From Candidatus Jorgensenbacteria bacterium RIFCSPLOWO2_01_FULL_45_25b (GTDB lineage: Bacteria > Patescibacteriota > Minisyncoccia > UBA6257 > GWB1-50-10), in assembly GCA_001781035.1 (NCBI GenBank), contig MFKK01000034.1:1-52633 (forward strand): a DNA stretch of 52,633 nucleotides, read 5' to 3'. Position 1 is the first letter of the stretch. Every line of letters begins with the position of its first letter. Made by a program: the position numbers and the translations under genes. Below are positions 1,405 to 51,824 of the stretch, piece after piece. The notes below the pieces were generated by a model. The model was not told the origin of the DNA, did no database searches, and saw nothing but the letters and a program-made list of their open reading frames with translations.

Positions 1405-2769
1405 ATGAAACAAAGCCAAAAGCCACTCCCCTCTCACTTAGAAGATTTTTTGGATTGGTTGGTTCGTAAACGTAATCTTACTTTGAAAACTCAAGCCAAC
1501 TATGCCCGGTTCTTGGAGAAATTTTTTTCTTGGCTTGGCTCTAATTACCTTTTTTCCTTAAGGCCGCATGAACTTACTTCAGACCATTTGGAAAAGTATC
1601 GTTTTTTTCTTGTCTCTGATAAACATCTCAAGTCCTCAACTCAAAACATTTATCTTATAGCCCTTCGTTCCCTCTTAACGTATTTTGTTGAAAATAATAT
1701 TTTCGCTCCTTCTCCAGAAAAAGTACATTTACTGGGAAGTGTTTTGACCAAAAAACCTCGTTTTTTAAGTTTTCAAGAATTACGGTGCTTATTAGAACAG
1801 CCGGATGTTTCTATGATTCGAGGACTTCGAGATAGAGTAATTATGGAATTATTGCTTGCGACAGGCCTTCGGATAAGTGAACTTGTTCGCTTAAATAGAG
1901 ATTTTCTTTCAAGTGATAAAATTTCAGAAGATTGCCATTATTGGATAGGTCGTTATATGGCCGTTCGTCTTGATAAGAATGAGGCGCTTTTTGTTTCTTG
2001 GCGAAATGAAAAGAAACAATTATCACCGAAGCGTTTGAGTGTGCGAACGATACAGCATTTTTTTAAAAAATACGCCACTGAGGCGGGAGTGCCTTTTGCT
2101 ATCACTCCGCACATATTGCGTCACACGCAAGCACAAAATTTATTCACTAGGTCTGTTGACTTAAAACCGCTTTATCGGGCGTGTGGTCATTCTCAGATGT
2201 TTTCCGGTGAATATGTTGCTCCTGTTGGGAATATTCGTTCCGCTCTTCGAAAAAACGAATTTGTATGGCATGATGTTGAAAAACGTATTCAGGATGAAAT
2301 TTGCTGGCTTCGGGAAGTAATTTCAACCTTTCTACGCGAAGAAAAACATGCGCCTGATGGATGTAGCCATTGTTTTTTGCGTTCCATCGCTATTTTGATT
2401 GTGCAAGGGATTATAAGTGCGACGGAAATTCGTTTTGACCACACTCAAGTTTCTTTTTGGAAAAATCCTCATACTAATTCTTATCCGCAAGAGATTTATC
2501 ATGGAAAAGATTGGCATCATAGGACAATGAGTCAAATCGAGGGTCATTTTATTGTTCAGGGCTATAAAGTTGTTCGCCAGCCGATCCTACAACAAGGGCG
2601 GGCAGACCTCGGTGTTTCTGATTTTGGAGGTATGGACTTATTTATAGAAGTAGGAACGGTCTCGCTATACAAGCTTATAATAAATTTTTTAAGCATGGAT
2701 AATTTCGTGTATCTTATTGCTCCACACGAAGGAGTCTTGGTAGAGTTTATAAAGAAAAAGAAAAAATGA
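1405..2769 (+). CDS. Degenerate tyrosine-recombinase-like protein with a ~170 aa C-terminal extension (possible PD-(D/E)xK-like fold)
   Basis: The N-terminus aligns residue by residue with the neighbouring Xer ('FLDWL..K.LS.KTQ.NY.RFL..FF.WL', 'LRPHELTS.H'). It retains 'ATGLRISEL', 'HILRH', 'GH' and a late Tyr. It lacks the 'GKGGRTRTV' beta-hairpin that carries the catalytic Lys. The extension contains 'GRADLGV...DLFIEVGT', which resembles a D...E-x-K nuclease core. Confidence 0.6.
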   Translation: MKQSQKPLPSHLEDFLDWLVRKRNLTLKTQANYARFLEKFFSWLGSNYLFSLRPHELTSDHLEKYRFFLVSDKHLKSSTQNIYLIALRSLLTYFVENNIFAPSPEKVHLLGSVLTKKPRFLSFQELRCLLEQPDVSMIRGLRDRVIMELLLATGLRISELVRLNRDFLSSDKISEDCHYWIGRYMAVRLDKNEALFVSWRNEKKQLSPKRLSVRTIQHFFKKYATEAGVPFAITPHILRHTQAQNLFTRSVDLKPLYRACGHSQMFSGEYVAPVGNIRSALRKNEFVWHDVEKRIQDEICWLREVISTFLREEKHAPDGCSHCFLRSIAILIVQGIISATEIRFDHTQVSFWKNPHTNSYPQEIYHGKDWHHRTMSQIEGHFIVQGYKVVRQPILQQGRADLGVSDFGGMDLFIEVGTVSLYKLIINFLSMDNFVYLIAPHEGVLVEFIKKKKK

Positions 2770-2781
2770 TGTGACATAATT

Positions 2782-3729
2782 ATGAAAAACTCAAATAAAA
2801 GTATACAACAATACGTTTCTGATTTTCTTGACTGGATTGATGTGGAAAAGGGCCTAAGCTCAAAAACCCAGGAAAATTATTCGCGTTTCTTGAAAAGATT
2901 TTTTGTTTGGCTGGAAGAAAAGAAAATTCTTGATTTAAAGCCTCACGAACTTACTCCGGAACATATATGGGAGTACCGTATTTATCTTGCTCGCAAGACC
3001 CATTCTCGACGAACTGCGACCTCTTTAAAAAAATCTACTCAAAATTATTATCTCATCGTTCTTCGTTCGCTTCTCGCGTATTTTGTGGAGAGAAATATTC
3101 CCTCTCTTCCTCCTGAGAAGGTGAAGTTGGCACGGGATAAAGACGACAAGGAGATTCGTTTTCTGACCTTGGAGCAATTGGAGAAGCTTTTTTTTGTGCC
3201 CGATATTTCCTCTCCTGCAGGTGTTCGAGATAGGGCTATTTTGGAGACATTTTTTTCTACTGGAATGCGTGTTTCGGAGTTAGTTGCCCTGAATCTTGAT
3301 CAGGTAAGGTCGTCGCTCCATTTGGATTCGCTGGAACTTGGAATTGTGGGAAAGGGCGGCAGAACACGCACAGTGTATTTTTCAAAACGCGTGCTTTCCT
3401 GGATCGAAAAATACCTTGAGATGCGGGGTGATTTTGAAGAACCGCTTTTTATTAATTATCGTTCTCCGAAAACATCTTCCCGACGGCTTAGTGTTAAATC
3501 TATAGAGAATCTTGTGAAACGCTACGCTCTCCGAGCGGGTCTTCCTAAAAATACTACCCCACACGTGCTTCGACATTCTTTTGCTACTGATTTATTAAAT
3601 AAAGGTGTTGATATTAGAATTTTGCAAGAGTTTCTTGGTCATAAGAGTATTACTGCTACCCAGATATATACGCATGTCACGAGTAAAAAACTACGGGAGA
3701 TTCATAAGAAATTTCATGGTACTATATAG
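2782..3729 (+). CDS. XerC/XerD-family site-specific tyrosine recombinase (canonical)
   Basis: The full catalytic set is present: 'STGMRVSEL' (Arg), 'GKGGRTRTV' (Lys), 'HVLRHSFAT' (His-x-x-Arg) and 'LGHKSITATQIYTHV' (His, Tyr). Confidence 0.9.
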   Translation: MKNSNKSIQQYVSDFLDWIDVEKGLSSKTQENYSRFLKRFFVWLEEKKILDLKPHELTPEHIWEYRIYLARKTHSRRTATSLKKSTQNYYLIVLRSLLAYFVERNIPSLPPEKVKLARDKDDKEIRFLTLEQLEKLFFVPDISSPAGVRDRAILETFFSTGMRVSELVALNLDQVRSSLHLDSLELGIVGKGGRTRTVYFSKRVLSWIEKYLEMRGDFEEPLFINYRSPKTSSRRLSVKSIENLVKRYALRAGLPKNTTPHVLRHSFATDLLNKGVDIRILQEFLGHKSITATQIYTHVTSKKLREIHKKFHGTI

Positions 3730-3737
3730 AAGTATTT

Positions 3738-5192
3738 ATGACTAAAAAACACGTACATTTTGTGGGGGTTGGAGGCATAGGAATGAGCTCTCTTGCCCGA
3801 TGGTATTTGGCTCAAAATTGGGCTGTTTCGGGGTCTGACCTCTCCCCCTCTGAAATTACCAAAGAGCTTGAAAAGGAGGGCGTACGGGTCAAAATTGGGC
3901 ACAATTCCTCAAATTTGCCTCAAAAATTGAATGTTTTGGTGTATAGCAACGCTCTTCCGCAGAATACCCCTGAAATTGAGGGGGCGCGGAAATTGGGGGC
4001 TTCTGTTGTGAGCTATTCCGAGGCGTTGGGCGCTATTGCCAAAACATATACGACGCTTGCGGTTGCGGGGTCGCATGGAAAGAGCACGACGACCGCGCTT
4101 TTAGGTTTGTGTCTTCTTTCGGGCGGTTTTGACCCAACCGTTATTGTCGGAACGAAGGTGAAAGAGTTCGGCGGGAAAAATTTTCGTTTTGGAGGAGGCA
4201 AGTTTTTTGCGCTTGAGGCGGATGAGTATAAGGGAGCGTTTTTTCAATATGTTCCAACCTCTCTTATTATCACGAACATTGATAAGGAGCATTTGGATTT
4301 TTACAAGACGTTCGCGAACGTGAAGAGGGCGTTTTTGAGGTTTCTTGGGCAGGCGGTGCCGGGTGGGAAGTTTGTTTTCAATAGAGACGATGCTGTTTTG
4401 TGGGGATTACGGGCGCAGATTTTGCGTATCGCGAAAACGAAGCATTCGGAGATTCTTTGGTATTCGCTTCACTCCCCCATGGCGAAGAAGATTGAGCGAG
4501 TGTTGCGAATTCCCGGCAGGCACAATGTTTCAAACGCGCTCGCGGTTTATACGCTTGCCCGCGCGCTTGGCGTATTGGAGAGACGGATTTTTTCTGTCTT
4601 CCGAACATTTTCCGGTACGTGGAGGAGGATGGAGTACTGTGGCGATCTAAGGATCGCCACCGCGGATGAGCGCGGACTTGTACGCGGAAAAACGCGGAAA
4701 GAAACAAATGTTGAGGTGTACGATGATTACGCGCATCATCCGACGGAAATAAAGGCGACACTCTCTGCTTTTAAGCAATCCCCGTTAGAAGCAAAGCTTC
4801 TAACGGGGCAAGCCGCGAACGAACGCAAAAAGCGGAAGATTGTGTGCGTGTTTCAGCCTCATCAGGCGCATCGATTAAAATCGCTTTTTAAGGAGTTTGT
4901 TGATTCATTTCAAGATGCGGACGGACTTATTCTTCTTCCAACGTATCAGGTTCCTGGTCGGGATATTGCTTTGGACAAGCGATATTCATCCGAGGCGCTC
5001 GCGAAAGCAATCATCAGAAAGTATCCCCGAAAGCGTGTGTTGTATCTTGAAGACCCAAAAAGGCTGAAAGAGGAGATTTTCAATATGTTGCGCGGACTCC
5101 CCTCTTCGGACGGAGTTTTGGTTATGATGGGAGCGGGAGACATTTTTCAATTAACTTCGGAGTTGATTAAAAAAAGAATCTCTAATATCTAA
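3738..5192 (+). CDS. murC: UDP-N-acetylmuramate--L-alanine ligase
   Basis: Motifs 'HFVGVGGIGMS', 'GSHGKSTT', 'DDYAHHPTEI' and 'VFQPH' are present. The last codons and the stop lie inside a heptamer-repeat element. Confidence 0.9.
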   Translation: MTKKHVHFVGVGGIGMSSLARWYLAQNWAVSGSDLSPSEITKELEKEGVRVKIGHNSSNLPQKLNVLVYSNALPQNTPEIEGARKLGASVVSYSEALGAIAKTYTTLAVAGSHGKSTTTALLGLCLLSGGFDPTVIVGTKVKEFGGKNFRFGGGKFFALEADEYKGAFFQYVPTSLIITNIDKEHLDFYKTFANVKRAFLRFLGQAVPGGKFVFNRDDAVLWGLRAQILRIAKTKHSEILWYSLHSPMAKKIERVLRIPGRHNVSNALAVYTLARALGVLERRIFSVFRTFSGTWRRMEYCGDLRIATADERGLVRGKTRKETNVEVYDDYAHHPTEIKATLSAFKQSPLEAKLLTGQAANERKKRKIVCVFQPHQAHRLKSLFKEFVDSFQDADGLILLPTYQVPGRDIALDKRYSSEALAKAIIRKYPRKRVLYLEDPKRLKEEIFNMLRGLPSSDGVLVMMGAGDIFQLTSELIKKRISNI

Positions 5193-5324
5193 TATCTAAT
5201 TTCTAAATCCTAAACAATTTCAAAATATTAATCTCAAAAACGTAGTTTGATAGGCTCATTATAAAGTTTTGAATTTTGACATTTGAGATTGTTTAGAAAT
5301 TGGGGTTTAGAAATTAGAGATTTT
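5176..5324. repeat. AATTTCT-family heptamer-repeat hairpin element filling the murC / nuclease-gene spacer
   Basis: The left arm is 'aatctctaatatctaatatctaatttctaaatcctaaacaatttcaaaat'. The right arm is 'attttgacatttgagattgtttagaaattggggtttagaaattagagatt', an imperfect inverted repeat of the left. Confidence 0.8.
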
Positions 5325-5325
5325 T

Positions 5326-6087
5326 ATGTTGGATTATAAAAATGTTGAGGAATTTAAATCCCAATGCGGGTATGAAATTGACGGCGTGTGGTATCCGCGG
5401 GTGACGAAAATTGTTGATATTAAGTCAAAGCCCGCGCTGTATCGTTTTTACGGCGCGATGAAGAGTTATCAGGACGCCGAGCGCATGAAGGAGCAGTCCG
5501 CGATTGAGGGGACGCTTGTGCACGATACGATTGAGGCAATATTAACCGGACAGGAGCCTTCCATTCCTCTCTTAATCAAGCCTTCGGTGGACGCCTTTTT
5601 GAAGTTTTTAGAAGACAATTCCATTGAGGTTCAGACTCAATACGTTGAGTATCGTCTTTTTCATCCCACGCATCGCTACGCGGGAACGCTTGACGCTATC
5701 GCGACCATTCACGGCAAGACGGGAATTTTGGACATAAAAACGTCGCAGGCGATTTATAGGGATTATAACTTACAGACATCGGCCTATATGGCGGCGATGA
5801 TAGATAAGGTGCCGTCGCTTCAGGCGCGATGGATTTTGCGCATTGACCAGAATCAGAAGTGTCTTCAGTGCGGAGCCGTGTTGCGCACCAAGGGAGGGAA
5901 CGGAAAGATTCGCACCCAGTGGAATAATTATGTTATGCAGACGTGCGCGCATGAGTGGGGGCCGGCTCGCGGGCTCATTGAGCTTAAGGAGTTTCCTTTT
6001 TGGGAGAATGATTTTGAGGCGTTTTTAGGAGCGAAACGACTGTGGGAGTGGGAACATGAGGAGATGTTGAAGAAGATTGGGTATTAG
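5326..6087 (+). CDS. PD-(D/E)XK nuclease, RecB/Cas4-like
   Basis: The motifs 'GTLDAIA', 'GILDIKTS' (D...D-x-K) and 'QTSAY' (the Q-x-x-x-Y of RecB-family nucleases) are present. There are four Cys residues: one N-terminal, plus 'CLQCG' and 'TCAHEW'. Confidence 0.7.
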   Translation: MLDYKNVEEFKSQCGYEIDGVWYPRVTKIVDIKSKPALYRFYGAMKSYQDAERMKEQSAIEGTLVHDTIEAILTGQEPSIPLLIKPSVDAFLKFLEDNSIEVQTQYVEYRLFHPTHRYAGTLDAIATIHGKTGILDIKTSQAIYRDYNLQTSAYMAAMIDKVPSLQARWILRIDQNQKCLQCGAVLRTKGGNGKIRTQWNNYVMQTCAHEWGPARGLIELKEFPFWENDFEAFLGAKRLWEWEHEEMLKKIGY

Positions 6088-18140: not shown

Positions 18141-19379
18141 TCATGATTTTGAAATTTCGTGACGAAAATCTTTGCGCAGTAGGTCTAATTTATTTTCTTT
18201 AATTGCCGTTCGGATTTGTTCCATAAGGTTGTTGAAGAAGAAGACGTTGTGGATGGTCGCGAGGCGGGCGGCTGAAGGCTCTTTCAGCTTGAAGAGTTCG
18301 TGGAGGTCTTTGCGGCGGATGTTTTTTTCACCGCATGTTTCGCAGGCGCAATTCTTTTCAATCGGTTCGGAGTTTGTTTTTTGACCGCCTTTCATCATAT
18401 CAATCGCGCCGTTTTTCGTCCAAAGGCGTCCATGTCGCGCTTCGCGGGTCGGAATCACGCAGTCAAAGGTATCAATTCCCGCTTCCACGCCGTCAAACAA
18501 GTCTTCTATTTTTCCTATTCCAAGAAAGTGGCGCGGTTTTTCTTCAGGGAGTAGAGGGAGCGTCCAATCCAAAATTTCAAACATGTTGTTTCGCGATCTT
18601 CCAAGAGAGCCTCCTATCGCGAAGCCGTCAAATGGCAGAGAACCGATGTATTTCGCGCTTTCTTCCCGAAGGTCGCGAAATTCTCCGCCCTGTACAACTC
18701 CATAGAGCAACTGTTGTTGCTCTATGGAGTTGTAAGTTGAAAGTTGCAAGTTTGCTTTTGATTCGTGTTCTTCTAGGCAGATTTTTTCCCACGCGTGCGT
18801 GCGGGCGAGAGATTTTTTTGTGTATTCGTAATCGTGAAGCGGAGAGGTGCACTCGTCAAAGGCAATTATGATGTCGGCTCCCAATTTATGCTGAATTTGT
18901 ATTGATTCTTTGGGGCCTAAAAACTGCTCTTCTTTTTCCGTTGTCCCCCCCACATCGCTCGGGACAAGAAAATATGCGCCTTCATCCGTAATACGAACAC
19001 GAGATCGTAACTCGTAAGATTTACGAGTTACGATCTCGTAAGATTTTTCTATTTTCCCTACGCCGTGCTCCCGGCTGGAACCAAGGCTAAATACCTGAAA
19101 ACCGCCCGAATCGGTCATGATGGGGCCCTGAAAGCCAAGTTCGTTGTGAACTCCCTGGTATGTTTTTAACCCCTCGTTTCCCAGCCGTTGCCAGAGATGG
19201 TAGGTATTCGCAATCACAACCTGTGTTTTGGTTTTTATCAGGTCTTCCGGCGTTAGGGTGCGCACTTTCGCGTGGGTGCCGACAATGACATAGGCGGGGG
19301 TTTCAATGATGCCGTGAGAAGTGTGAATTGCGCCCGCGCGGGCGCGGGAGGTTTTGTCTTTTTTCTGGATTTCCAGCAT
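18141..19379 (-). CDS. tgt: Queuine/guanine tRNA-ribosyltransferase with two palindrome-derived in-frame insertions
   Basis: Motifs 'DSGGFQVFS', 'AFDECT', 'GVVQGG', 'FDGFAIGG', 'DCVIPTR' and the zinc motif 'CxC..C' are present. It aligns with E. coli Tgt except for extra segments of about 30 and 11 aa. Confidence 0.9.
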   Translation of the reverse strand: MLEIQKKDKTSRARAGAIHTSHGIIETPAYVIVGTHAKVRTLTPEDLIKTKTQVVIANTYHLWQRLGNEGLKTYQGVHNELGFQGPIMTDSGGFQVFSLGSSREHGVGKIEKSYEIVTRKSYELRSRVRITDEGAYFLVPSDVGGTTEKEEQFLGPKESIQIQHKLGADIIIAFDECTSPLHDYEYTKKSLARTHAWEKICLEEHESKANLQLSTYNSIEQQQLLYGVVQGGEFRDLREESAKYIGSLPFDGFAIGGSLGRSRNNMFEILDWTLPLLPEEKPRHFLGIGKIEDLFDGVEAGIDTFDCVIPTREARHGRLWTKNGAIDMMKGGQKTNSEPIEKNCACETCGEKNIRRKDLHELFKLKEPSAARLATIHNVFFFNNLMEQIRTAIKENKLDLLRKDFRHEISKS

Positions 19380-20425: not shown

Positions 20426-20434
20426 AATTGACAA

Positions 20435-20496
20435 TCTCTAAATCCTAATTTCTAAATTCTAAACAATCTCAAAATTCAAATAATCAAAAAACATTT
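20435..20496. repeat. AATTTCT-family half element filling the frr / rseP spacer
   Basis: The sequence 'caatctctaaatcctaatttctaaattctaaacaatctcaaaattcaaataatcaaaaaac' shows the same heptamers plus the 'AAACAAT.TCAAAA.TCAAAT' core as the other copies. Confidence 0.75.
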
Positions 20497-25356: not shown

Positions 25357-25545
25357 AAGTATTTAATCTCTAATCTCTAATTTCTAATCTCTAAATAATC
25401 TCAAAACTCAAATATCAAATGTTTAAATACTTTTACGTTTTAATTTCTAATTTCTAATTCCTAATTTCTAAACAATATAAAAACTCAAATATCAAATTAA
25501 AACATTAGGTTCCTGCGCGACTTGAGGTTCCCCCCCCGTGCCTTT
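25357..25545. repeat. Two tandem AATTTCT-family elements filling the rplQ / rplM spacer
   Basis: 'aatctctaatctctaatttctaatctctaaataatctcaaaactcaaatatcaaat' is followed by 'taatttctaatttctaattcctaatttctaaacaatataaaaactcaaatatcaaat'. Confidence 0.8.
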
Positions 25546-27896: not shown

Positions 27897-28009
27897 AATT
27901 AGGCTTTAGGCTCTAGGCAACTAGGCTTTAGGCTTTAGGCTTTAGGCTTTAGGCTTTAGAAGCCGTACGCCTAGTCCCTAACGCCTAGCGCCTAACGCCT
28001 AGCGCCTTT
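27897..28009. repeat. TAGGCTT-family heptamer hairpin filling the rpsM / rpsK spacer
   Basis: 'taggctttaggctctaggcaactaggc(tttaggc)x4' is followed by the inverted arm 'gcctagtccctaacgcctagcgcctaacgcctagcgcc'. Confidence 0.85.
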
Positions 28010-28511: not shown

Positions 28512-28614
28512 TAGTTAGGCTTTAGGCTCTAGGCTCTAGGCAACTAGGCTTTAGGCTCTAGGCTTTAGAAGCCGTACGCCTATAGTCCCTAACGCCTAGC
28601 GCTTAACGCCTTTT
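28512..28614. repeat. TAGGCTT-family heptamer hairpin filling the infA / rpmJ spacer
   Basis: 'taggctttaggctctaggctctaggcaactaggctttaggctctaggctttagaagcc' is followed by 'gcctatagtccctaacgcctagcgcttaacgcc'. Confidence 0.85.
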
Positions 28615-36008: not shown

Positions 36009-37169
36009 CTATAAGATAATGCCACCACCGAGGAGCTCGCCTTGTTTTGAATAGAAGACGGCGGACTGGCCGGAAGCTATTGCTTTTTGGGGGCTCTCAA
36101 AAATTAGTTGAAAGTTGAGAGTTGAAAGTTTATGGAGAGTTGCCAACACGAGAGGTTGGCGGTAACGGATGCGAGTTAAAAGTTGAAAGTTGAGAGTTGA
36201 AAGTTTTGTTTCAGTTTTTGGATTTATAAAATGGACGTTGGTGAGAATTAGTTCTTTGCGGTAGAGGGTTGGGTTTTCATCTCCTTCGGCGACTGTGATT
36301 GTGTTTGTTTTAAGGTCTTTTGCGGTTATGTAGTGAGGTTTTGTTTTGGGGGAGTTTGTTACCCGCAATTTTTTATTTTTTTCCCGCAAATCCAAACCGT
36401 GGCGCTGGCCTATGGTGTAGTAGTAAATTCCGTTATGAGTTCCCAAGATTTTTCCCTCGGTGTTTACGATGTTTCCTGGTTTTTGCGGAATGTATTCTTT
36501 TAAAAAGTCCTCCAGCGTTATGGAGCCCAAGAAGCAGATGCCTTGTGAGTCCTTTTTGTCGGCGGTTGGGAGGCCGGCTTTGCGGGCGATTTCTCTGACC
36601 TTCGGCTTTAGATAATCTCCTATCGGGAAGAGACAGTGTTTTAATTGATTTTGGGTTAGTGTCCAGAGGAAGTAGGATTGGTCTTTCGCACTATCGCGAG
36701 CGCTCATCAACGAATACCAAATTTTTTTTGAATTTACGAATTTACGAATACTGAATTTTTTTATTCGTTTATTCGTATTTGATTCGTTATTCGTTGATAA
36801 TTTTACATAATGGCCTGTTGCGATGAAATTCGCGCCCATCTTCAGGGCTTCGCGGAGAAATAAATCAAATTTAATTTCCTTGTTGCACATGACATCCGGA
36901 TTCGGCGTACTGCCGTTTTTGTACCCCTCAATCATGTATTCCACTACCCTCTTTTTGTATTCTTCTTCAAAATCAAACACATAGAAAGGTATTCCAAGAT
37001 GAGACGCGACACGGCGCGCGTCTTCCGCGTCCTTCTCGGCGCAACCATCAAGATTCAGGCAGCGCATGAAGACGCCTGTTACGTTGTATCCTTGTTTTTG
37101 TAATAACAAAGCGGCGACGGAGCTATCTACCCCGCCACTTAGGCCGACGAAGACTTTGTTTTTTCGCAT
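36009..37169 (-). CDS. mnmA: tRNA 2-thiouridine(34) synthase MnmA carrying repeat-derived in-frame segments
   Basis: Motifs 'GLSGGVDSSVAA', 'ATGHY', 'KDQSYFL' and 'SGQSAVFY...GGGII' are present. Relative to E. coli MnmA there are about 22 extra aa between ATGHYV and DSAKDQSYFL. Confidence 0.9.
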   Translation of the reverse strand: MRKNKVFVGLSGGVDSSVAALLLQKQGYNVTGVFMRCLNLDGCAEKDAEDARRVASHLGIPFYVFDFEEEYKKRVVEYMIEGYKNGSTPNPDVMCNKEIKFDLFLREALKMGANFIATGHYVKLSTNNESNTNKRIKKFSIRKFVNSKKIWYSLMSARDSAKDQSYFLWTLTQNQLKHCLFPIGDYLKPKVREIARKAGLPTADKKDSQGICFLGSITLEDFLKEYIPQKPGNIVNTEGKILGTHNGIYYYTIGQRHGLDLREKNKKLRVTNSPKTKPHYITAKDLKTNTITVAEGDENPTLYRKELILTNVHFINPKTETKLSTLNFQLLTRIRYRQPLVLATLHKLSTLNFQLIFESPQKAIASGQSAVFYSKQGELLGGGIIL

Positions 37170-37268: not shown

Positions 37269-37838
37269 ATGTTGTCGTATACGGATTTGAAACAGGGAAC
37301 GATTTTTGTGCGAGACGGAGAGCCGTGCCGTGTGTTGGAATACGAGTTTATTCGGATGCAACAGAGAAAACCCGTTGTTCAGCTAAAGATTCGGAAGCTG
37401 ATTTCGGGAAAGGCTATTCCCATGACGGCGTATCCCAGCGACACGTTTGAGGAGGCGGAAATTTCAACCGGAGAGGCGCGGTTTATTTATGAGAGCCGGG
37501 GAACATATTGGTTTCATCCTGTCGGGAATCCAAAAGAACGCTTTTCACTTACGGCGGATGCTATCGGAGAACAGGTGAAGTTTTTAAAACCCGGCATTCA
37601 GATTAAGGCTTTTCGTTTTGGTGAACAGATTATCGCCGTAGAATTGCCCGTGAAGATAGAGGTTGCGGTTACGGAGGCTCCTCCTTCGGTACGGGGCAAT
37701 ACCGCGCAGGGCGGGATGAAGACTGTTACGGTTGAGACGGGCGCGAAGGTTTTAACCCCCCTTTTTATTGAATCAGGAGACTTGATTCGGGTGAACACGC
37801 AGACGGGAGAGTATTCGGAGAGGGCGCAGAAGAGTTGA
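37269..37838 (+). CDS. efp: Elongation factor P
   Basis: The 189-aa protein begins 'DLKQGTIF..DGEPCRVLE' and contains 'VETG..V.VPLFI..GD.I.V.T..GEY..R'. Confidence 0.9.
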   Translation: MLSYTDLKQGTIFVRDGEPCRVLEYEFIRMQQRKPVVQLKIRKLISGKAIPMTAYPSDTFEEAEISTGEARFIYESRGTYWFHPVGNPKERFSLTADAIGEQVKFLKPGIQIKAFRFGEQIIAVELPVKIEVAVTEAPPSVRGNTAQGGMKTVTVETGAKVLTPLFIESGDLIRVNTQTGEYSERAQKS

Positions 37839-37903
37839 AAGTTGAAAGTTGAAAGTTGAAAGTTGAAAGTTGAAAGTTGAAAGTTGAAAGTTGAAAGTTG
37901 ACA
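37834..37903. repeat. Tandem array (GTTGAAA)x9 plus GTTGACA; contains the efp stop codon
   Basis: The array is a perfect 7-nt periodicity over 63 nt. The efp TGA (37836-37838) lies inside the first unit. Confidence 0.95.
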
Positions 37904-39786: not shown

Positions 39787-39927
39787 GTTTTTATTATAGC
39801 AGATAACTTCATTTGACCCCGTTAGAAAGAACAAATATTATTCTGTCTTTATATACTCTTCTTGTTGCGACACAGGGGGACTTTCTAACGGGGTTTGACT
39901 TTTTTTCGTTTTTTATGTTTAGTTTAT

Positions 39928-40430
39928 GGGCGAGTATATCAGGCAATAGCTCCGCTTTTGCGGAGAGGAAAGTCCGGACACTCGGCCTTATGCGCGGCAC
40001 AAGGAAATTCTAATTTCTAATCTCTAAACCGACCGAAATTCGCAGTCAGTTTAGAATTTAAGATATTAGATATTAGGATTTTCTCGTGCTGTGCGTGAGG
40101 CAAGGGTAGCGGGTAATGCCCGTCGTCCGCGAGGATAGAGGTGCGAACAGAGACGTCTGGGCGCGAAAGCGCCTAGAGAGCCCAATCCTAAGCTAGATGG
40201 CTTAATTCCGCCATAGGGAGAAAAAAGCGGAAGTGAAACGGTCCCGACGTTTCAGTCGGGACTCCGACCTCGTAAGAGTGTCGGATGCTAAATCCTTACT
40301 TGAGTGCAAGGTCGCGCCAGCAGTGCTCCGCACTGGTTGGAGAACCGCTTGATCTTGAGGGCAACCGAGAGACCAGATAAATTATTGCCGCTCTTTTGAG
40401 TACAGAATCCGGCTTACGATATACTCGCCC
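39928..40430 (+). ncRNA. rnpB: RNase P RNA (bacterial type A-like) with insertions
   Basis: P1 pairs 'GGGCGAGUAUAUC' with 'GAUAUACUCGCCC'. The P4 strands are 'GAGGAAAGUCCGGAC' and 'ACAGAAUCCGGCUUA'. A terminator 'CCCCCUUCGGGGGUUUUGUUUU' follows. At ~503 nt it is longer than the usual 350-400 nt. Confidence 0.9.
40003..40083. repeat. AATTTCT-family hairpin inserted inside RNase P RNA
   Basis: 'ggaaattctaatttctaatctctaaac ... gtttagaatttaagatattagatattaggattttc' sits on the stem GCACAAG/CUCGUGC, shortly 3' of the P4 5' strand. Confidence 0.8.
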
Positions 40431-40447
40431 CCTTCGGGGGTTTTGTT

Positions 40448-40885
40448 TTACGCGTCAAGCGCCTGATTTACAAGTTTATCCGCTTCTTTGTTTTTTTCCC
40501 GCCGGATGGCAACGAAGCTTATTTCCTTAAAATTTTGTTTTAACACTCCGATTTCCGCGGAGAGTTTTTTTAGAGATTCTTCTTTGATTTTGTATTCCCC
40601 TTTTTGCTGTTTTACGAGAAGCTCGCTGTCGGAACGGATTTCAATTTCGGTTTCTTTCGCTTTCGCTTTTCCAAAAAGTTCTTCCGCTTTTTTTATGGCC
40701 ATAATAACCGCTTTGTATTCGGCAACGTTGTTTGTCGTCTTTCCGATGGTTTCGGCGTATGTTTTACTTGCCCCGAGTTTATTCGAGGGGTCGCCGATTA
40801 CGGCTCCAATCGCGGCAGGCCCGGGATTTCCCCTTGCCCCGCCGTCGGTATAGATGATGATTTTATGATTTTGTTTCGTTTGCAT
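40448..40885 (-). CDS. rnhA: Ribonuclease HI
   Basis: 'IYTDGGARGNPGPAAIG', 'TNNVAEY.A', and the later 'DSELLV' and 'NKEADKLVN' fit the DEDD catalytic pattern of RNase H1. The start is uncertain (40885 or 40912). Confidence 0.8.
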   Translation of the reverse strand: MQTKQNHKIIIYTDGGARGNPGPAAIGAVIGDPSNKLGASKTYAETIGKTTNNVAEYKAVIMAIKKAEELFGKAKAKETEIEIRSDSELLVKQQKGEYKIKEESLKKLSAEIGVLKQNFKEISFVAIRREKNKEADKLVNQALDA

Positions 40886-43440: not shown

Positions 43441-44545
43441 ATTTATTTAACGCTGTAATTCCTGGAAGAGTTTTACCGGAGAGATAATCAAGCATGGCGC
43501 CACCACCCGTCGAAATGTATAGATTTCGCAAATCCGAAATCCGAAATCCGAAATCCGAAACTAATTTGATTGAAGCAGTGGTTTCGCCACCGCCGACAAG
43601 CGAAAAGGCGGTTTTATTTTTGATGATAGCCTGCCACACGCCTTTTGTGCCTTTCTCATAGCCGTGTTTTTCAAACATGCCTATCGGGCCGCTCCAGATA
43701 ATGGTTTTTGATTCGGAGATGATGTTTGCGAACTTTTGAATTGTTTTTGGACCAATATCAAGAATTTTGTTGTCGTGAAACTTAATATCTTCGGGCAGAA
43801 GAATGTTGTTGTAAAGGAGATAGTCTTTAATATCTTTGACCTCATCAACGATGGAGTTCTTGACGTCTTCGCCCCGAGCTTTTAAGAAGGTGTTTGCCAA
43901 TCCCCCGCCAATCAGAATGGTGTTCGCTTTTTCTTTGAAATACTTAATAATATCGCCTTTATCTTTTATTTTTATACCTCCCAAGATGAGGGTGAGCGGA
44001 GGTTCGTATGTTTTCACCGCGCGCTCCAAATGTTCTATTTCTTTTTCCAAAAGCAATCCTCCGTAGAAGGGCAGAAATTTTGTGATGGCGCACACAGAGG
44101 CGTTTTCACGATGGGAGACGGCGAAGGCGTCGTTTATGTAGATGTCGCCGAGACCAGCCAGTTCTTTCGCAAAGTTTATATCGTTTGCTTCTTCGCGAAA
44201 GTCAAAGCGGAGGTTTTCAAAGAGAACTATTTGAGTTTTTGTTTGTACTTCCCTCCTTTCGGGATTACAATAAGGGAAGAAGCCTACTTTTGAACCGACT
44301 TTTTTCGCGAGCAATTTGGCGAACGGTCTTAGGGAGAGTTTTTTGTCTTTTCCCTCGGGTCTGCCCCGGTGGCTTATGATGTGAATACGACACCCAAGCT
44401 TTTGCAGAAAGCGTATTGTCGGGATGGTGGAATCCAAGCGGTACATTTCTTCTTTTGTCTTTGTGTTGATGTTTAAGTCAACGCGCAAAAGGCATGTTTT
44501 TCCCGCTATGTTTTCGGGGTTGATGGCTGAAAGGTAGTTAATCAT
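43439..44545 (-). CDS. pgk: Phosphoglycerate kinase, with a heptamer repeat in the C-terminal region
   Basis: Motifs 'RVDLN', 'SHRGRP' and 'STGGGA' are present. I placed the start at ATG 44545 ('MINYLSA...'), not at the ORF-track 44623. Confidence 0.9.
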   Translation of the reverse strand: MINYLSAINPENIAGKTCLLRVDLNINTKTKEEMYRLDSTIPTIRFLQKLGCRIHIISHRGRPEGKDKKLSLRPFAKLLAKKVGSKVGFFPYCNPERREVQTKTQIVLFENLRFDFREEANDINFAKELAGLGDIYINDAFAVSHRENASVCAITKFLPFYGGLLLEKEIEHLERAVKTYEPPLTLILGGIKIKDKGDIIKYFKEKANTILIGGGLANTFLKARGEDVKNSIVDEVKDIKDYLLYNNILLPEDIKFHDNKILDIGPKTIQKFANIISESKTIIWSGPIGMFEKHGYEKGTKGVWQAIIKNKTAFSLVGGGETTASIKLVSDFGFRISDLRNLYISTGGGAMLDYLSGKTLPGITALNK

Positions 44546-46037: not shown

Positions 46038-46450
46038 TAAAATGTTTTGTTGAAAGTAAACTTTTTAAGGTAGAAGTTTATCCTCTGCGTGAGGTATAAA
46101 AGTGTATTGCTCGAATAAGCAAGGTGGGATTTATTAGTACTCCTCGGCTCCATCCCTTGCGGGACTTCCACCTAGAGCCTATCAACCTGGTAGTCTTCCA
46201 GGAATCCATGATGCATTATCTTGGGAGGGGCTTCGTGCTTAGATGCCTTCAGCGCTTATCCCTTCCGAACATAGCTACCCAGCGATTCACCTGGTGGCAA
46301 AGCTGGTAGACCAGAGGTTCGTTCAACCCGGTCCTCTCGTACTAGGGTCAACTTCCCTCAAGCATCGTAACGCCGACAGTAGATAGAGACCAACCTGTCT
46401 CACGACGGTTTGAACCCAGCTCGCGTACCACTTTAATTGGCGAACAGCCA

Positions 46451-46483
<33 letters not shown>

Positions 46484-46497
46484 GTGAGCCGACATCG

Positions 46498-47331
46498 CAT
46501 CTTCTCTATTATTACTAATAGCGTGGACTATATCTTCATCCTTTTTATCTTAAAAAGGAGCTGACGTGTTAGCTGGAAACCATGTTTCCAACTCTGCCTC
46601 GTTGCAACCCAATGCATAAGGCAAGTCTCTACGGGGTTATAACTCAATTTTATATCTCATTGAAGGAATGATTTCTTTATCTAGTATTTTTCGCAATATA
46701 GCAAGTGAAGATTTTAGAAAACGCAACCGATAATACTGTTTATCTTTATTAAGAGTCGCTTTTAGATTGAGCTTTTGAAGTGCTCGCACTAACTTTTTCT
46801 GATCTTGAATGCTAAATTGTTGAGTATTCAGATATATGTCATTGGTTTTACAACGACTTCCATCATCCATGAACCAGACTGCTAAACTTGTTGGATCTAG
46901 GGTAAGGTTTGCAGGAATTACCTTTTTCGTTTTTCTATAAAAGAGTTGATGCAGAGCGGTTAGCTCTGATAACTGCTTTGAGTAGAAACGATAGGCAATT
47001 CTTGTTCCATTACTTTTCCGCATTTTGGGCGGAGAACCGGAAATATTTTTTAATATTTTATATTTCCAATCAACATATTCTTTTTGGGCAAAAGAATGAT
47101 TGATTTCCAAAAGAGCATGTTTTCTTTTTGGAATGATTCTTAGATAACCATCTCCCAAAAGCGTTCCAACAATCAATGATTTTTGTTGTTGAGTTAAACT
47201 TCCCACGGTATTGTCCATATAATGATTCTATCATTTCACTGTATGGAGTTCACCGTTATAAGTCAGATTTTTCTTTGATCGCATCACAGCGATCGGGAAT
47301 GAGATTACTCTCATTGCACCCCAATGTGTTA
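46498..47331 (-). mobile_element. Intron (group I-like) in 23S domain V carrying a LAGLIDADG ORF
   Basis: On the plus strand the conserved string 'gagccgacatcg|aggtgcc' is interrupted by ~834 nt. Joining the flanks restores the 'GGCACCUCGAUGUCGGCUC' consensus, at about E. coli position 2500. Confidence 0.8.
46637..47218 (-). CDS. LAGLIDADG homing endonuclease (double-motif)
   Basis: Both motifs are present, 'LIVGTLLGDGYL' and 'LAVWFMDDGS'. The gene lies wholly within the 23S intervening sequence. Confidence 0.9.
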   Translation of the reverse strand: MDNTVGSLTQQQKSLIVGTLLGDGYLRIIPKRKHALLEINHSFAQKEYVDWKYKILKNISGSPPKMRKSNGTRIAYRFYSKQLSELTALHQLFYRKTKKVIPANLTLDPTSLAVWFMDDGSRCKTNDIYLNTQQFSIQDQKKLVRALQKLNLKATLNKDKQYYRLRFLKSSLAILRKILDKEIIPSMRYKIEL

Positions 47332-47952
47332 AGGTGCCGAGCTCCGTCGTCGATGTGGACTCTCGGACGGAACCAGCCTGTTATCCCCGGAGTAGCTTTT
47401 ATCCGTTATCTCCGACCTTCCTATAAAGATTCGTCGGGTCGCTAAGCTCTGCTTTCGCACCTGCGCGACTTGTATGTCTTGCAGTTAAGCTGGCTTTTGC
47501 CTTTACGCGTCCAGCCCGATTTCCATCCGGGCTAAGCCAACCTTAATAGACTCCTCCGTTACTTTTTGGGAGGAATCCGCCCCAGATAAACTGCCCACCA
47601 GGCACTGTCTCCACGGCGTTTTGCGCCGCAGGTTAGATATTAACAACTAAAAGATGGGTATTTCACTGACGGCTCCATCCCATCCGAAAACAGGACTTCA
47701 AAGCCTCCCCACTATGCTACGCATCCAGACATTAATACCAATACCAAGCTACAGTAAAGCTTCCGGGGTCTTTTCGTCTTACTGTCGGTATCCCGCGTCT
47801 TCACGGGAATCGCATTTTCATCGGGCTCCTCGTTGAGACAGTTCTCCAGTCGTTACACCTTTCGTGCGCTCCGGAACTTACCCGGAAAGGAATTGCGCTA
47901 CCTTAGAACGGTTATAGTTACCGCTGACATTGACGAGGGCTTCGGACAGTAA

Positions 47953-48160
47953 GCCGCACCTCACTACGGTTCGGTGCGTACAGAAATAAATAGAAATTGA
48001 TAGAAATATGCTTCGCGAAATTAACCCCACCCCTCCCTCCCCTAAGACTTAGGGGAGGGAGACGGAGGGAGAGGTTAGTCTCTATTGAATTTCTATGAAT
48101 TTCGTCCCGAATAAAGTGAGGGACATATTTCTGTCGCATCGAACGATAGTGAGATGCGAC
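47953..48160. other. ~190-nt expansion segment at the tip of 23S helix 68 (E. coli ~1870)
   Basis: The conserved flanks 'GGUAAC..CCCUCGUC' and 'GGUUAACGAUGG' are separated by ~215 nt here, against ~28 nt in E. coli. The insert is a long imperfect hairpin with the apical stem 'cccctccctcccctaagacttaggggagggag' and the inverted arms 'acagaaata..' / '..tatttctgt'. Confidence 0.75.
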
Positions 48161-48830
48161 CTCCATCGTTAACCTTCTCGCATCGGTCAGGTGTCACCCC
48201 CTATACATCCTCTTACGAGTTCGCAGGGAGCTGTGTTTTTGTTAAACAGTCGCCAGAGAAACTTTCGCTGCGGGCGTGCTTACGCGCGCCAGGCCTTATC
48301 CCGAAGTTACGGCCGCTTTTTTGCCGAGTTCCTTAACGAGGACTCACCCGTTCCCCTTGGGCTTCTCGCCCTATCCACCTGTGGCGGTTTCCGGTACGGA
48401 TTCCATACTTCAACCTTAGAGGTTTTTCTTGAACGCGCGCTCTATCAACTTGCGTCGACACGTATGCCAACACTTGCCTCTACTCTGGAGTTTGCGACTA
48501 AACGCAGAGACGCGGATTTGCCTACGCCTCACTCTCGAGTCAAGGATGCCAAACCATTAAGACACTTAATGTACTGCGCGTTGTCCCCCCATCGGACTAT
48601 GAAATACGGAAGGGCTGGAATATTAACCAGCTGTCCATCAGCTTCGGCTTTCGCCATTGCCTTAGGGCCGCCTCACCCTCCGCCGATTCGCGTTGCGGAG
48701 GAAACCTTGGATTTTCGGGGAGCCGGTTTTTCACCGACTTTGTGATTACTCATGCCAGCATTCTCTCTTCCTAACGCTCCAGTCGCCCTCACGGATCAAC
48801 CTTCAGCGCATTAGGAATGCTCTCCTACCA

Positions 48831-49008
48831 CGCCTCGCGCTTTGCGCGAGGAAATCCTAAGCTCTAAATTCTAAATCCTAAACAATATCAAAACTCAAAT
48901 GACCGAAACTCAAAACATTTTGTTTTAAGTGTTTGGATTTTGAATTTAAAATTTGTTTAGAGTTTAGAGATTAGAATTTAGAATTTCCTTGTGCAAAGCA
49001 CAAGACAT
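48831..49008. repeat. Intervening sequence at 23S helix 45 built from an AATTTCT-family hairpin
   Basis: Between the conserved 'CCGAAG' and 'GGUAGGAGAGC' blocks lie three hairpins: CUUGUGC-UUU-GCACAAG, a ~140-nt heptamer-repeat hairpin, and CCUCGCGC-AAA-GCGCGAGG. Confidence 0.8.
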
Positions 49009-49684
49009 TCGCATCTTCGGTACCTTGCTTAGCCCCGGTAAATTTTCGGCGCCATCATCCTCGAATAGTGAGTTGTTACACACTCTTTAAAGGATGGCTA
49101 CCTCTGAGCCAACCTCCTATCTGTTTATGGATAATGACCACCTTTCACACTTAGCAACTCCGATACCCTTGCGGAGATCGGAGTCCCGACTTCACGTCGG
49201 GAGAATTTAGGGACCTTAGATGGCGATCTGGGCTCTTCCCCTCTCGACCACGGAGCTTAGCCCCCGCAGTCTGACTGCTAATGAACAACTCATGGTATTC
49301 GGAGTTTGATTGATCGTCCGAGCTTGCGCCCAGTGACGATCATCCAGTGCTCTACCCCCACGAGTCTATTTAATTAACGCTAGCCCGAAAGCTATTTCGG
49401 AGAGAACCAGCTATTACCAAGTTCGATTAGTTTTTCGCTCCTTACCCCAATTCATCCGAGAGTTTTGCACGGCTCACCGGTTCGGACCTTCATTCGATTT
49501 TACTCGAACTTCATCCTGATCAGGGCAAGCTCACCTGGTTTCGGGTCTTACACGTACTGCTTAATCGCCCTATTAAGACTCGCTTTCGCTACGCCTCCTC
49601 CCGCTTGGCGGGATTAGACTTGCAACACATGCAAACTCGCTGGCTCATTCTTCAATAGGCACGCCGTCACTCGCCGTTGCACAG

Positions 49685-49846
49685 CAGCGGAATTTCTAAT
49701 TTCTAATCTCTAATTTCTAAACAAACCCAAATGATAGAATGACTAATGACTAAAACAATTTAAGTTTAGACATTACACATTTTGACATTAGAAATTTATT
49801 AGATATTAGTAATTAGGAATTAGTTATTCCGATGCTGCGCATCGGT
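49685..49846. repeat. Intervening sequence at 23S helix 25, hairpin cassette copy 1
   Basis: The cassette reads 'gcacagcagcgg aatttctaatttctaatctctaatttctaaac ... gatagaatgactaatgactaaaacaattta ... attagaaatttattagatattagtaattaggaatt ... ccgatgctgcgc'. Confidence 0.85.
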
Positions 49847-50202
49847 TGAGCTCCGGCTCTTTGTAAGTAAGTGGTTTCAGATACTATTTCATCGCCCTCA
49901 CCGGGCTGCTTTTCACCTTTCCCTCACGGTACTGGTTCACTATCGATCACCAAATGTATTTAGCCTTACCAGATAGTACTGGCAGATTCCCTCAAGGTTA
50001 TCTTGGCCTTGAGGTACTCAAGAACAAGAACGATTGGTCACTTTGTTTTCGCCTACGAGGCTTTCACTCACTATGGCTGTCCTTTCCAGAACATTTGACT
50101 AACAAAGTGATTTGTAACCAATTACCAAATAAACTTCCGTAGCTCCGGAAATTTCCGAAGCTTCAGAAGTTTTTTGGAATGTTCTCGCCTTACAACCCCC
50201 GC

Positions 50203-50374
50203 CGCTGCACAGCAGCGGAATTTCTAATCTCTAATTTCTAATCTCTAATTTCTAAATAAATCCGAATGATAGAATGACTAATGACTAAAACAATTTACGT
50301 TTAGACATTTAAGCATTTTAACATTAGAAATTTATTAGATATTAGTAATTAGAAATTCCGATGCTGTGCATCGA
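50203..50374. repeat. Hairpin cassette copy 2 in 23S domain I (E. coli ~270-280)
   Basis: It has the same base stem, heptamer arms and central 'gatagaatgactaatgactaaaacaattta' core as 49685-49846. On the rRNA strand it lies just 3' of 'GUAGCGGCGAGCGAA..CAGCCC'. Confidence 0.85.
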
Positions 50375-50474
50375 CAGGTTTGGGCTGTTCCCTTTTCGCT
50401 CGCCGCTACTTGGGGAATACAAATTTGTCTCTTTTCCACCAGGTACTTAGATGTTTCAGTTCCCTGGGTGCGCT

Positions 50475-50631
50475 CCACTGCGTAGCAGCGGAATTTCTAA
50501 TTTCTAATATCTAATTTCTAAATAAATCCGAATGATAGAATGACTAATGACTAAAACAATTTACGTTTAGACATTAGAAATTTATTAGATATTAGTAATT
50601 AGGAATTAGTTATTCCGATGCTACGCACTGG
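50475..50631. repeat. Hairpin cassette copy 3 in 23S domain I (E. coli ~140)
   Basis: It is the same cassette, lying between 'CCGAAUGGGAAAACCC..' and 'GGGAACUGAAACAUCUAAGUA' on the rRNA strand. Confidence 0.85.
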
Positions 50632-51120
50632 TTACCGCGTTTTACACGGCAGGGTTTTCCCATTCGGAAATCTCCGGATCAAAGGTTGCTACACACCTCC
50701 CCGAAGCTTATCGCAGTTACGCCACGTCCTTCATCGCCATTTGGTGTCAAGGCATCCACCACCTACCCTTAACTTGCTTACATGAGCAATTTCACTTTTA
50801 TCTTACATATATGATATGCAAGAAACTTCTACCTTAGAAAGTTTACTTTCTTAACTGCCTATTTCGCCTGCTTGCGGGGCGAAATGAGGCTATGAAGTTT
50901 TCAAAGTTCAAGAAAGCATCCATACCGTCGGAGCGCCAATGTTGAGGTCGGCTTGTTTCGGCCGCAACATTGAGGCTCTTTTTCTGTCTTTGTTTCGCGT
51001 GTGAAGAAATAAAAATCCCGCCAGGTCTTGGCGGGCCGACACATCAATAATATAGGGCTTTCTTCACCCGTGTCTCCCACCTTGATATGTATTGGCTTTT
51101 TTCATTAGCAGTAAGTACCA

Positions 51121-51200: not shown

Positions 51201-51824
51201 TTATTTACGCGGTTTTTCGTCCGTAATAAGAGGCACGAAACGAAAGCCAGCGTACTCTTTTTTCTTGAATTCTTTTGCAGATTTTTTTTCAATTTGGATG
51301 ATGCTTTCTCCCACAGGAGCAACGACATACCCGCCTATTTTTAGTTCGGATTTCCATGCCGATGAAACGCGAACGCACGTTGCCGCCGCGATGATTTTGT
51401 CGTATGGCGCGCGCTCTTTATATCCTTTCGCTCCGTCGCCTTTTATTATTTTTATGTTCTCGTTTTGATATGTTGAAAGATTTTTTTCCGCTTGCCTCAT
51501 GAGTTCCTCTATTCTTTCAATTGTTGTAACGCTTCCCTCTTTTCCGACAAGTTTTGAGAGAAGCGCGGTTTGCCATCCGGAGCCGGTTCCGATTTCCAAA
51601 ATCTTTTCTCCTTGTTTCGGTTCCAAGAGTTCCAGCATGAACGCCACGACAAGCGGTTGGGAGATTGTTTGTCTGTAACCAATCGGAAGCGCCTGATTTA
51701 GATAGGCATGCTTCTTCATTTCTTCCGGTAGAAAATCTTTTCGGTCAACGTATTTGAACGCTTCTATAATTGAGGACGTTTTTAGGTAGCCTTCGGAGAT
51801 GAGTTGTTGAATAAGAGTTTCCAT
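51201..51824 (-). CDS. pcm: Protein-L-isoaspartate O-methyltransferase
   Basis: Motifs 'QTISQP', 'ILEIGTGSGWQTA' and 'YDKIIAAA' are present. Confidence 0.85.
   Translation of the reverse strand: METLIQQLISEGYLKTSSIIEAFKYVDRKDFLPEEMKKHAYLNQALPIGYRQTISQPLVVAFMLELLEPKQGEKILEIGTGSGWQTALLSKLVGKEGSVTTIERIEELMRQAEKNLSTYQNENIKIIKGDGAKGYKERAPYDKIIAAATCVRVSSAWKSELKIGGYVVAPVGESIIQIEKKSAKEFKKKEYAGFRFVPLITDEKPRK

Follow-up and report, generated by a model that had tools for sequence, protein, structure and literature searches.

The rnpB gene and its insertion

The window analysed here is a stretch of 52,633 nucleotides (contig MFKK01000034.1) of Candidatus Jorgensenbacteria bacterium RIFCSPLOWO2_01_FULL_45_25b, and our subject is a long hairpin within its rnpB, the gene for the RNA of RNase P. 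Judged by the proteins encoded nearby and their relatives, the window belongs to the Patescibacteria/Parcubacteria, close to Jorgensenbacteria and Paceibacteria, and comes from groundwater metagenomes. The rnpB gene lies on the forward strand at 39931-40431 (501 nt) and matches the whole of the Rfam model RF00010 (positions 1-367; 94.9 bits, E 1.7e-29). It was missed by the default Rfam scan and recovered in an E-value scan: the gathering score of RF00010 is 100, and the gene scores below it because of a 156-nt insert in the RF00010 alignment. This is why standard annotation misses the gene. The RNA is of type A architecture, as the P1-P4 core, the conserved P4 strands, P5/P7-P11, P12, P15 and P18 stand in the type A order. 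A preliminary description of this DNA had bounded the gene by P1, both strands of P4 and a terminator, and all of these are present, the last as an intrinsic-terminator-like hairpin (40427-40441, forward strand) with a T run that ends at 40450.

The insertion itself is a 117-nt hairpin at 39985-40101 (forward strand), delimited by its fold, by the length of the P4-to-P7 segment and by a match to a family profile (nhmmer, 39986-40100, E 6.7e-17). It folds as one rod of approximately 48 bp with a free energy of -58.3 kcal/mol (z = -10.4 against 200 dinucleotide shuffles, none of which was as stable). The sequence of the repeat hairpin that had been quoted previously is found exactly at 40003-40083, but the element extends beyond these limits on both sides, and the separate 'short stem' on which the hairpin was thought to sit is a GC-rich stem belonging to the repeated element. 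The insertion had also been placed directly after P4. It lies instead between the 5' strand of P5 (CACUC, 39979-39983, forward strand, with its partner GAGUG at 40302-40306) and the 5' strand of P7 (GGGUAG, 40104-40109). The hairpin does account for most of the excess length of rnpB, as first suggested.

The equivalents of P5 pair at all five positions in 67 of 84 distinct relatives, with covariation at four positions. Directly 3' of the element are the conserved core helices P7, P8 (40110-40122) and P9 (40126-40135), which together occupy 40104-40135 on the forward strand; P8 and P9 covary (24 relatives) and the 5' strand of P7 pairs partially with 40296-40301. The hairpin thus fills the P5-P7 linker, for which the Rfam type A consensus has eight unpaired bases and where type B RNase P RNAs have their helix P5.1.

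Five parts can be distinguished in the element, all on the forward strand. At the base, a 5' GC-rich terminal module, the near-palindrome GCCUUAUGC-GCG-GCACAAGG (39985-40004), faces a 3' module, UCUCGUGC-UGU-GCGUGAGGC (40082-40101), and together they make a 16-bp GC-rich clamp. Above the clamp are two heptamer arms, AAAUUCU AAUUUCU AAUCUCU AAAC (40005-40029) and GUUUAGA AUUUAAG AUAUUAG AUAUUAG GAUUU (40049-40081), the second of which pairs with the first by way of G-U pairs in the fold. These arms consist of TCTAATN heptamers in only two to three imperfect units each, and the repeat finder TRF reports TTCTAAT in 2.9 copies at 40008-40027 and AGATATT in 2.3 copies at 40061-40076. The core loop between them is CGACCGAAAUUCGCAGUCA (CGACCGAA-AU-UCGCAGUCA, 40030-40048), recognised by comparison with a sequence from another genome that is described below. 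The transcribed strand of the hairpin folds at -56.6 kcal/mol and the antisense at -44.5 kcal/mol, and the transcribed sense folds better in every copy of the family. The only Rfam matches to the hairpin itself are weak ones to plant or animal microRNA precursor models, which are generic long hairpins. As judged from the sequence, the catalytic core elements of rnpB are intact despite the insert. As the insert forms a self-contained rod on its 16-bp base, the P4/P5/P7 core should still form.

Repeats can mislead short-read assemblers and several short contigs end inside rnpB, so a misjoin could in principle have put a repeat into the gene. However, five assemblies, independent of each other and made from different samples, agree at 100% over all 501 nt, no listed contig break falls within the hairpin, and the flanking P5 and P7 strands pair correctly. 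The chance of an assembly chimera is negligible, and on the strength of the five identical assemblies we reject it.

The P5-P7 helix in related rnpB genes

Approximately 120 related rnpB loci were retrieved with a DNA pattern from the conserved J11/12 region. Retrieval through the VirD4-like neighbour was less productive, in that most of the genome loci fetched had no rnpB in the flank. Measured from the end of P4 up to P7, the segment is 129 nt long in the window against a median of 34 nt in 117 relatives, and it exceeds 60 nt in only ten other loci. When each of the 114 distinct related sequences was folded separately, the P5-P7 linker gave a hairpin with 4 bp or more in 106 (median 8 bp, median z -2.8). 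Examples are CCCCCGCC-UUGG-CGGGGG (locus L008) and GCCCAC-UUUU-GGGUGGGC (locus L105). RNAalifold, run on a MAFFT alignment, did not recover a P5.1-like helix, the sequence being too variable to align. A short native P5-P7 helix of variable sequence is therefore the rule in the clade. Given its presence in the relatives, the element extended or replaced a variable peripheral hairpin and did not create a new helix.

The closest syntenic relatives are L218 and L219 (72% and 66% identity in the VirD4-like protein). Both have only short P5-P7 hairpins, which indicates that the 117-nt helix is derived in the lineage of the window. A comparison with sister genomes had been called for previously; close relatives lack the element, and their native helix is short and unrelated in sequence, where a conserved native helix of similar sequence would have spoken against an insertion. 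Long hairpins of other kinds occur elsewhere, one of them built of ACGAAU repeats at the P5-P7 site of L009 and others at P9, and the lengths of the P5.1 and P9 tips vary across relatives.

The surroundings of the gene also vary. Relative to the VirD4-like gene, rnpB is directed away in the window, L218 and L219 and towards it in L007-L010, and the opposite orientations suggest that rnpB has been inverted between sublineages. The window RNA has two hairpins at the P13/P14 position (approximately 40233-40285) which are missing from L007-L010. The spacer that separates the VirD4-like gene from rnpB contains an inverted repeat of approximately 14 nt, noticed by eye, ACCCCGTTAGAAAG (39817-39830) and CTTTCTAACGGGGT (39881-39894), and it overlaps the best promoter-like site at 39813-39841. 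Another neighbour is an RNase H gene, for which homologues were retrieved with the version starting at ATG and none with the version starting at TTG.

Copies of the element in the window

The motif TCTAATNTCTAA has 23 matches in the window, those in the 23S rRNA gene included, against 0.03 expected. Six full copies of the element align: the one in rnpB, four in the 23S gene and one intergenic. The preliminary description took rnpB to be the second essential catalytic RNA with this repeat family, and the four 23S copies bear this out. The 23S gene (46115-50779, reverse strand) is 4665 nt long against 2925 positions in the model. Comparison with Escherichia coli 23S rRNA places the four copies, all on the reverse strand, within E. 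coli nt 130-178 (50475-50631), at a hairpin of domain I after nt 270 (approximately 271; 50198-50378), at nt 540-548 (49675-49850) and in place of nt 1162-1186 (48834-49004). The first, third and fourth of these sites correspond to helix 9/10, the tip of helix 25 and helix 45, respectively. All four hairpins stand in the sense of the RNA, and the first three sit in terminal loops of the Rfam alignment.

The copy at helix 45 is the closest to that in rnpB. The two are identical at 39 of 45 nt in an ungapped comparison of the 5' side and at 41 of 54 on the 3' side. This likeness takes in the non-repetitive GC-rich base, where 15 of 20 nt of the 5' module and 14 of 19 nt of the 3' module agree. 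Differences in the base stem are compensatory (GCG/UGU in rnpB, UUU/AAA at helix 45). Alignment of the copies thus marks the helix-45 copy as the nearest paralogue of the one in rnpB. All five copies in RNA genes have terminal modules of the form CC..UGC-NNN-GCA..GG, which are near-palindromic and can also pair with each other. If they pair as one long helix, 87% of cells are paired and ten pairs are changed on both sides in the five copies, and if each forms a local palindrome, 90% are paired, so that pair counts do not separate the two models. The central triplets covary under the long helix only.

Outside RNA genes, the gap that separates a Mur ligase gene from the following one holds a full hairpin copy without the GC modules (5169-5330, forward strand; nhmmer E 1.6e-28), which is bordered by runs of A and of T. 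Two tandem half-copies of one arm each are found by TRF and nhmmer in intergenic DNA at 25364-25471 (forward strand), and sequence matches show further single arms at 1219-1307 and 20433-20491. It had been proposed that the element targets RNA hairpin loops or the DNA encoding them. The intergenic copies lend this no support, and the pattern is accounted for just as well if copies survive only at helix tips that tolerate them.

The arms and modules provide the terminal inverted repeats of a miniature inverted-repeat transposable element (MITE). No direct repeat or target-site duplication was seen by eye around the rnpB, 23S or intergenic copies. Domain scans with Pfam covered approximately 30 open reading frames (ORFs) of the window; no transposase was found among them, only two tyrosine recombinases. 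There was likewise no match to a Y1 transposase, although no search was aimed at RAYT proteins or a repetitive extragenic palindrome (REP) head. The RNase III gene rnc is absent from the scanned ORFs of the window, to which the search for it was confined. The two recombinase genes, of the phage-integrase family, adjoin each other at 1405-3729, just downstream of the heptamer tracts at 1219-1307, and the catalytic-domain match of the first spans only part of the profile.

The 23S gene has other insertions. One of 835 nt between E. coli positions 2500 and 2501 (46497-47332) contains a LAGLIDADG ORF (46637-47218), and we take it to be an intron. There is an additional insertion of approximately 190 nt at E. 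coli 1854-1887 (47944-48169) and a palindrome with 28-nt arms at 50128-50175. Immediately upstream of the 23S gene is a gene for protein-L-isoaspartate methyltransferase (51201-51824), with no 16S gene there.

The family in other genomes

A profile made from the six copies finds the family in helix P9 of rnpB in three other loci (L091, L106 and L125). The ends of these members are CCAGUGC-UUCG-GCACUGG and CCAAUGC-GGAG-GCAUUGG, and their arm units are GAAAUUC, GAAAUCC or UCCAAAU. Intergenic members are found by the profile in L200 and L164 as well, and L044, L162 and L031 have shorter matches. For the 23S gene, two homologue look-ups gave usable sequence and the other loci had only 23S 3' ends. 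L218 and L219 both carry the family at helix 45, which suggests that the helix-45 insertion is older than the insertion in rnpB. L218 additionally has a second 23S site and intergenic copies with TCTAAT/TCTAAAC units like those of the window. The insertion sites of the family differ between relatives.

In L218 the loop of the heptamer hairpins holds a nested cargo of approximately 100 nt, GC-rich and structured as several hairpins, for which no Rfam family was found. A 103-nt stretch of this cargo is 100% identical in an intergenic copy (L218:17513-17615) and the 23S helix-45 copy (L218:161-263), which suggests that copying took place recently between the two sites, one intergenic and the other in rRNA. 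The rnpB element of the window has traces of the same cargo: 40017-40037, read on the minus strand, is a 21-nt exact match to its 3' end, and the other end, TCGCAGTCAGTTTAGA, is visible when the rnpB loop is aligned with the cargo. We read the rnpB loop as keeping both ends of the cargo in inverse orientation, with approximately 85 nt of the middle deleted. The core of the rnpB element thus appears, by this alignment, to derive from a cargo-bearing variant of the family.

Taken together, the copies suggest a common architecture, recognisable at the sequence level, of GC-rich terminal modules (in the RNA-gene copies), heptamer arms specific to each genome, and a variable core able to carry cargo. 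A solo hairpin without heptamers at L219:70-110, in 23S after E. coli nt 270, CGAUGC-UU-GCAUUG, resembles the terminal module of the window element at that site. It could be a native helix or the remnant of an element that was deleted.

Some of these data might be taken as signs of a selected module of RNase P RNA and rRNA, one that could serve to bind protein, to help folding or to signal localisation. Modules and heptamer arms are kept at 23S helix 45 in three genomes despite sequence divergence, the pairs of the base stem covary, the sense strand is the more stable, and there is no polymorphism in the five assemblies. However, the closest relatives have no such extension in their rnpB, it is missing from about 90% of the 117 related rnpB genes, in other genomes the family sits at P9 instead, and the host helix is itself variable. 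The existence of intergenic copies and the lack of conservation in loops and cores also speak against selection for a function, and we regard this explanation as very unlikely.

Period-7 repeats and inserts in protein genes

Tandem repeats of the clade are dominated by heptamers. Among the 101 tracts with at least three copies in 199 related loci (L007-L206), period 7 accounts for 56, period 8 for ten and period 6 for four. The window has 17 period-7 tracts, a density approximately nine times that of the average locus, and TRF reports the units TCTAATN, AGTTGAA, TTAGGCT and AAATCCG. A perfect (AGTTGAA)n tract runs from the stop codon of efp (37833-37901). It has nine units here and in four assemblies, eight in L001 and seven in L209, and is a live length polymorphism.

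These repeats raise the possibility that no element moved and that slippage of heptamer units during replication lengthened a native P5.1-like helix where it stood. Such growth reportedly has a precedent in cyanobacteria, in the repeats of the RNase P RNA helix P12. The predominance of period 7, the polymorphic (AGTTGAA)n tract and the variable P5.1 and P9 tips of the relatives would all fit with this. However, the likeness to the helix-45 copy spans the non-repeat GC base, and the loop retains both ends of a cargo known from copies in another genome. Furthermore, each arm has only two to three imperfect units, two arms would need to grow in step, and L218 and L219 show no intermediate. The shared non-repeat base, the cargo ends, the copying in L218 and the differing sites make purely local growth of the helix unlikely.

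Heptamers and palindromes are also seen in and between protein genes. Between rpsK and rpsM there is a hairpin of another heptamer family (27899-28007), in which TTAGGCT in 8.6 copies faces units of the CCTAACG type, and a TAGGCTC tract follows rpsM (28516-28568). In mnmA (36009-37169, reverse strand) an inverted repeat of ACGAAT-type units at 36706-36798 encodes an in-frame insertion of approximately 25 amino acids (residues ~130-154) that is absent from solved MnmA structures. This site is hypervariable, with 0-45 extra residues in relatives, and the insert of the window is also present in L009. Heptamers of the AGTTGAA family at 36106-36130 and 36174-36205 encode KLSTLNFQL twice in the C-terminal domain of MnmA, whose length is little changed in comparison with solved structures despite these repeats. 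The tgt gene for tRNA-guanine transglycosylase (18141-19379, reverse strand) contains two perfect palindromes with 19-nt arms. That at 18999-19039 coincides with an insertion of approximately 25 amino acids relative to solved TGT, and that at 18693-18752 adjoins AGTTGAA heptamers and an insertion of approximately 11 amino acids. Finally, a perfect AAATCCG tract of 4.4 copies in pgk (43530-43560, reverse strand) encodes SDFGFRISD in a loop that differs between relatives; slippage by a single unit would change the reading frame.

Origin and fate of the rnpB element

We consider it likely that 39985-40101 is one copy of a dispersed family of palindromic elements of the Parcubacteria which extended or replaced a native hairpin of rnpB. 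It is best read as an element like an intervening sequence (IVS) or a MITE, tolerated on a peripheral helix. The copy may have reached rnpB at the DNA level from a sibling, whether by copy-and-paste, by template switching or by ectopic conversion between hairpin-forming DNA, and it would persist in that the helix tip points away from the catalytic core. The likely order of events is helix 45 first and rnpB later.

Several points weigh against this interpretation. No transposase (in the window), target-site duplication or empty-site allele was found, and the mechanism of spread is one that we infer. The window covers only 52.6 kb of the genome. Heptamer tracts slip in place, as the seven, eight or nine units of (AGTTGAA)n show, so that part of the arms could be local growth. 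The GC modules occur only in the RNA-gene copies and L219 has its solo hairpin, so the modules might partly derive from host helices. The architecture is kept at helix 45 in three genomes, which could mean a function beyond tolerance. Additionally, any clipping of the rnpB hairpin in the RNA is proposed by analogy.

As to the fate of the hairpin in the transcript, we lean slightly towards clipping by RNase III over retention as a helix extension. Three things tip the balance: the precedent of the IVS sites in 23S rRNA, the removal of Candidate Phyla Radiation (CPR) rRNA insertions from transcripts (as stated in PMC11270868), and the duplex of approximately 48 bp, a plausible substrate for RNase III. 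Clipping would leave a two-piece RNase P RNA joined by P1, P2, P4, P5 and the GC clamp, and the gene is a concrete candidate, open to testing, for an RNase P RNA that is fragmented in nature.

A wider proposal can be made, which we offer tentatively and think rather doubtful as a whole. An undescribed family found across the Parcubacteria, with GC-rich palindromic ends, genome-specific heptamer arms and optional structured cargo, might repeatedly colonise helix tips (the 23S IVS sites, and P5.1 or P9 of rnpB) and be excised by RNase III to give a naturally split, two-piece RNase P, while the period-7 process that builds its arms would also write heptamers into protein genes.

Comparison with known systems

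Helices 9, 25 and 45 of 23S rRNA are the classical sites of IVSs that are excised by RNase III without religation. The element of the window and its 23S siblings resemble IVSs in being extended stem-loops of 100-200 nt that have no ORF and replace helix tips, and three of the four siblings are at these helices (9/10, 25 and 45). They differ in that the rnpB element lies in RNase P RNA, outside these helices, and in that the family has heptamer-repeat arms and also occurs in intergenic DNA. We know of no IVS in an RNase P RNA. In CPR bacteria, many short ORF-less insertions at IVS sites of 23S genes are reported by Tsurumaki et al. (2024; PMC11270868), who also describe the CPR rRNA insertions of Brown et al. 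as often intron-like or protein-coding and as removed from transcripts. Term searches of the same article gave no occurrence of 'repeat', 'hairpin' or 'RNase P'.

Within RNase P RNA, there are two points of comparison. Lui et al. (2021; PMC8172020) describe CPR RNase P RNAs that score below Rfam or model thresholds, with some helices greatly extended and others missing. The window rnpB is also below the cutoff, but in the passages searched the helix extensions are not linked to a repeat family shared with rRNA. The second point is the P5.1 helix of type B (Bacillus-type) RNA. It too is a hairpin between P5 and P7, and the relatives have a short native one, but the window RNA is otherwise of type A. 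The type B P5.1 makes a loop-loop contact. Such a contact is unlikely here, since the native P5-P7 loop is not conserved in the relatives.

Vioque is said to have described in 1997 (Nucleic Acids Res 25:3471) short heptamer repeats in tandem (STRR sequences) within the rnpB of heterocyst-forming cyanobacteria. In both cases tandem heptamers lengthen a peripheral helix of RNase P RNA, and the genome of the window is rich in period-7 repeats. However, the host here is a Parcubacterium, the position is P5.1 (that of the STRR sequences reportedly being P12), and the repeats of the window, two to three imperfect units, form the two arms of a hairpin that is dispersed and has non-repeat parts in common with its other copies. 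The STRR units, reportedly CCCCAGT and others, differ from those of the window, and the heptamers of the cyanobacterial P12 are said to be a retained extension of the helix. As far as we know, the origin of the cyanobacterial period-7 repeats is still unexplained. The window shows that repeats of this period are not confined to heterocyst-forming cyanobacteria, and it offers a comparison in a very small and simple type of genome. A search of the literature on heptamer repeats in CPR/Patescibacteria found nothing relevant.

The preliminary description had been reminded of Rickettsia palindromic elements (RPEs), which are known mainly from protein-coding genes. The comparison holds in part. Both are palindromic repeats tolerated in essential genes, the cargo of L218 suggests dispersed behaviour, and the window genome has palindromic in-frame inserts in mnmA and tgt. 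RPEs have no heptamer periodicity, and their likeness to the parcubacterial element is a functional analogy only, with no relation in sequence expected. REP sequences, their paired form (REPIN) and MITEs resemble the family as hairpin repeats that are short, non-autonomous and scattered mainly through intergenic DNA, with palindromic modules as in REP doublets and recent identical copies. The family differs from them in its heptamer arms and its presence in structured RNA genes. By eye no target-site duplication was seen, and neither a RAYT or IS200-like gene nor another transposase was met with among the scanned ORFs of the window. The Correia elements of Neisseria, which are of the MITE type, are cut by RNase III in transcripts.

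Each component of the rnpB element therefore has a precedent. What is new is that one hairpin family is common to rnpB, the IVS sites of 23S rRNA and intergenic DNA. Also new, as far as sequence comparison can indicate, are an architecture that appears to be conserved across the Parcubacteria and an apparently independent arrival in different helices of RNase P RNA. One dispersed repeat family would in this way link the unexplained short ORF-less insertions in CPR 23S genes with the oversized helices of CPR RNase P RNAs.

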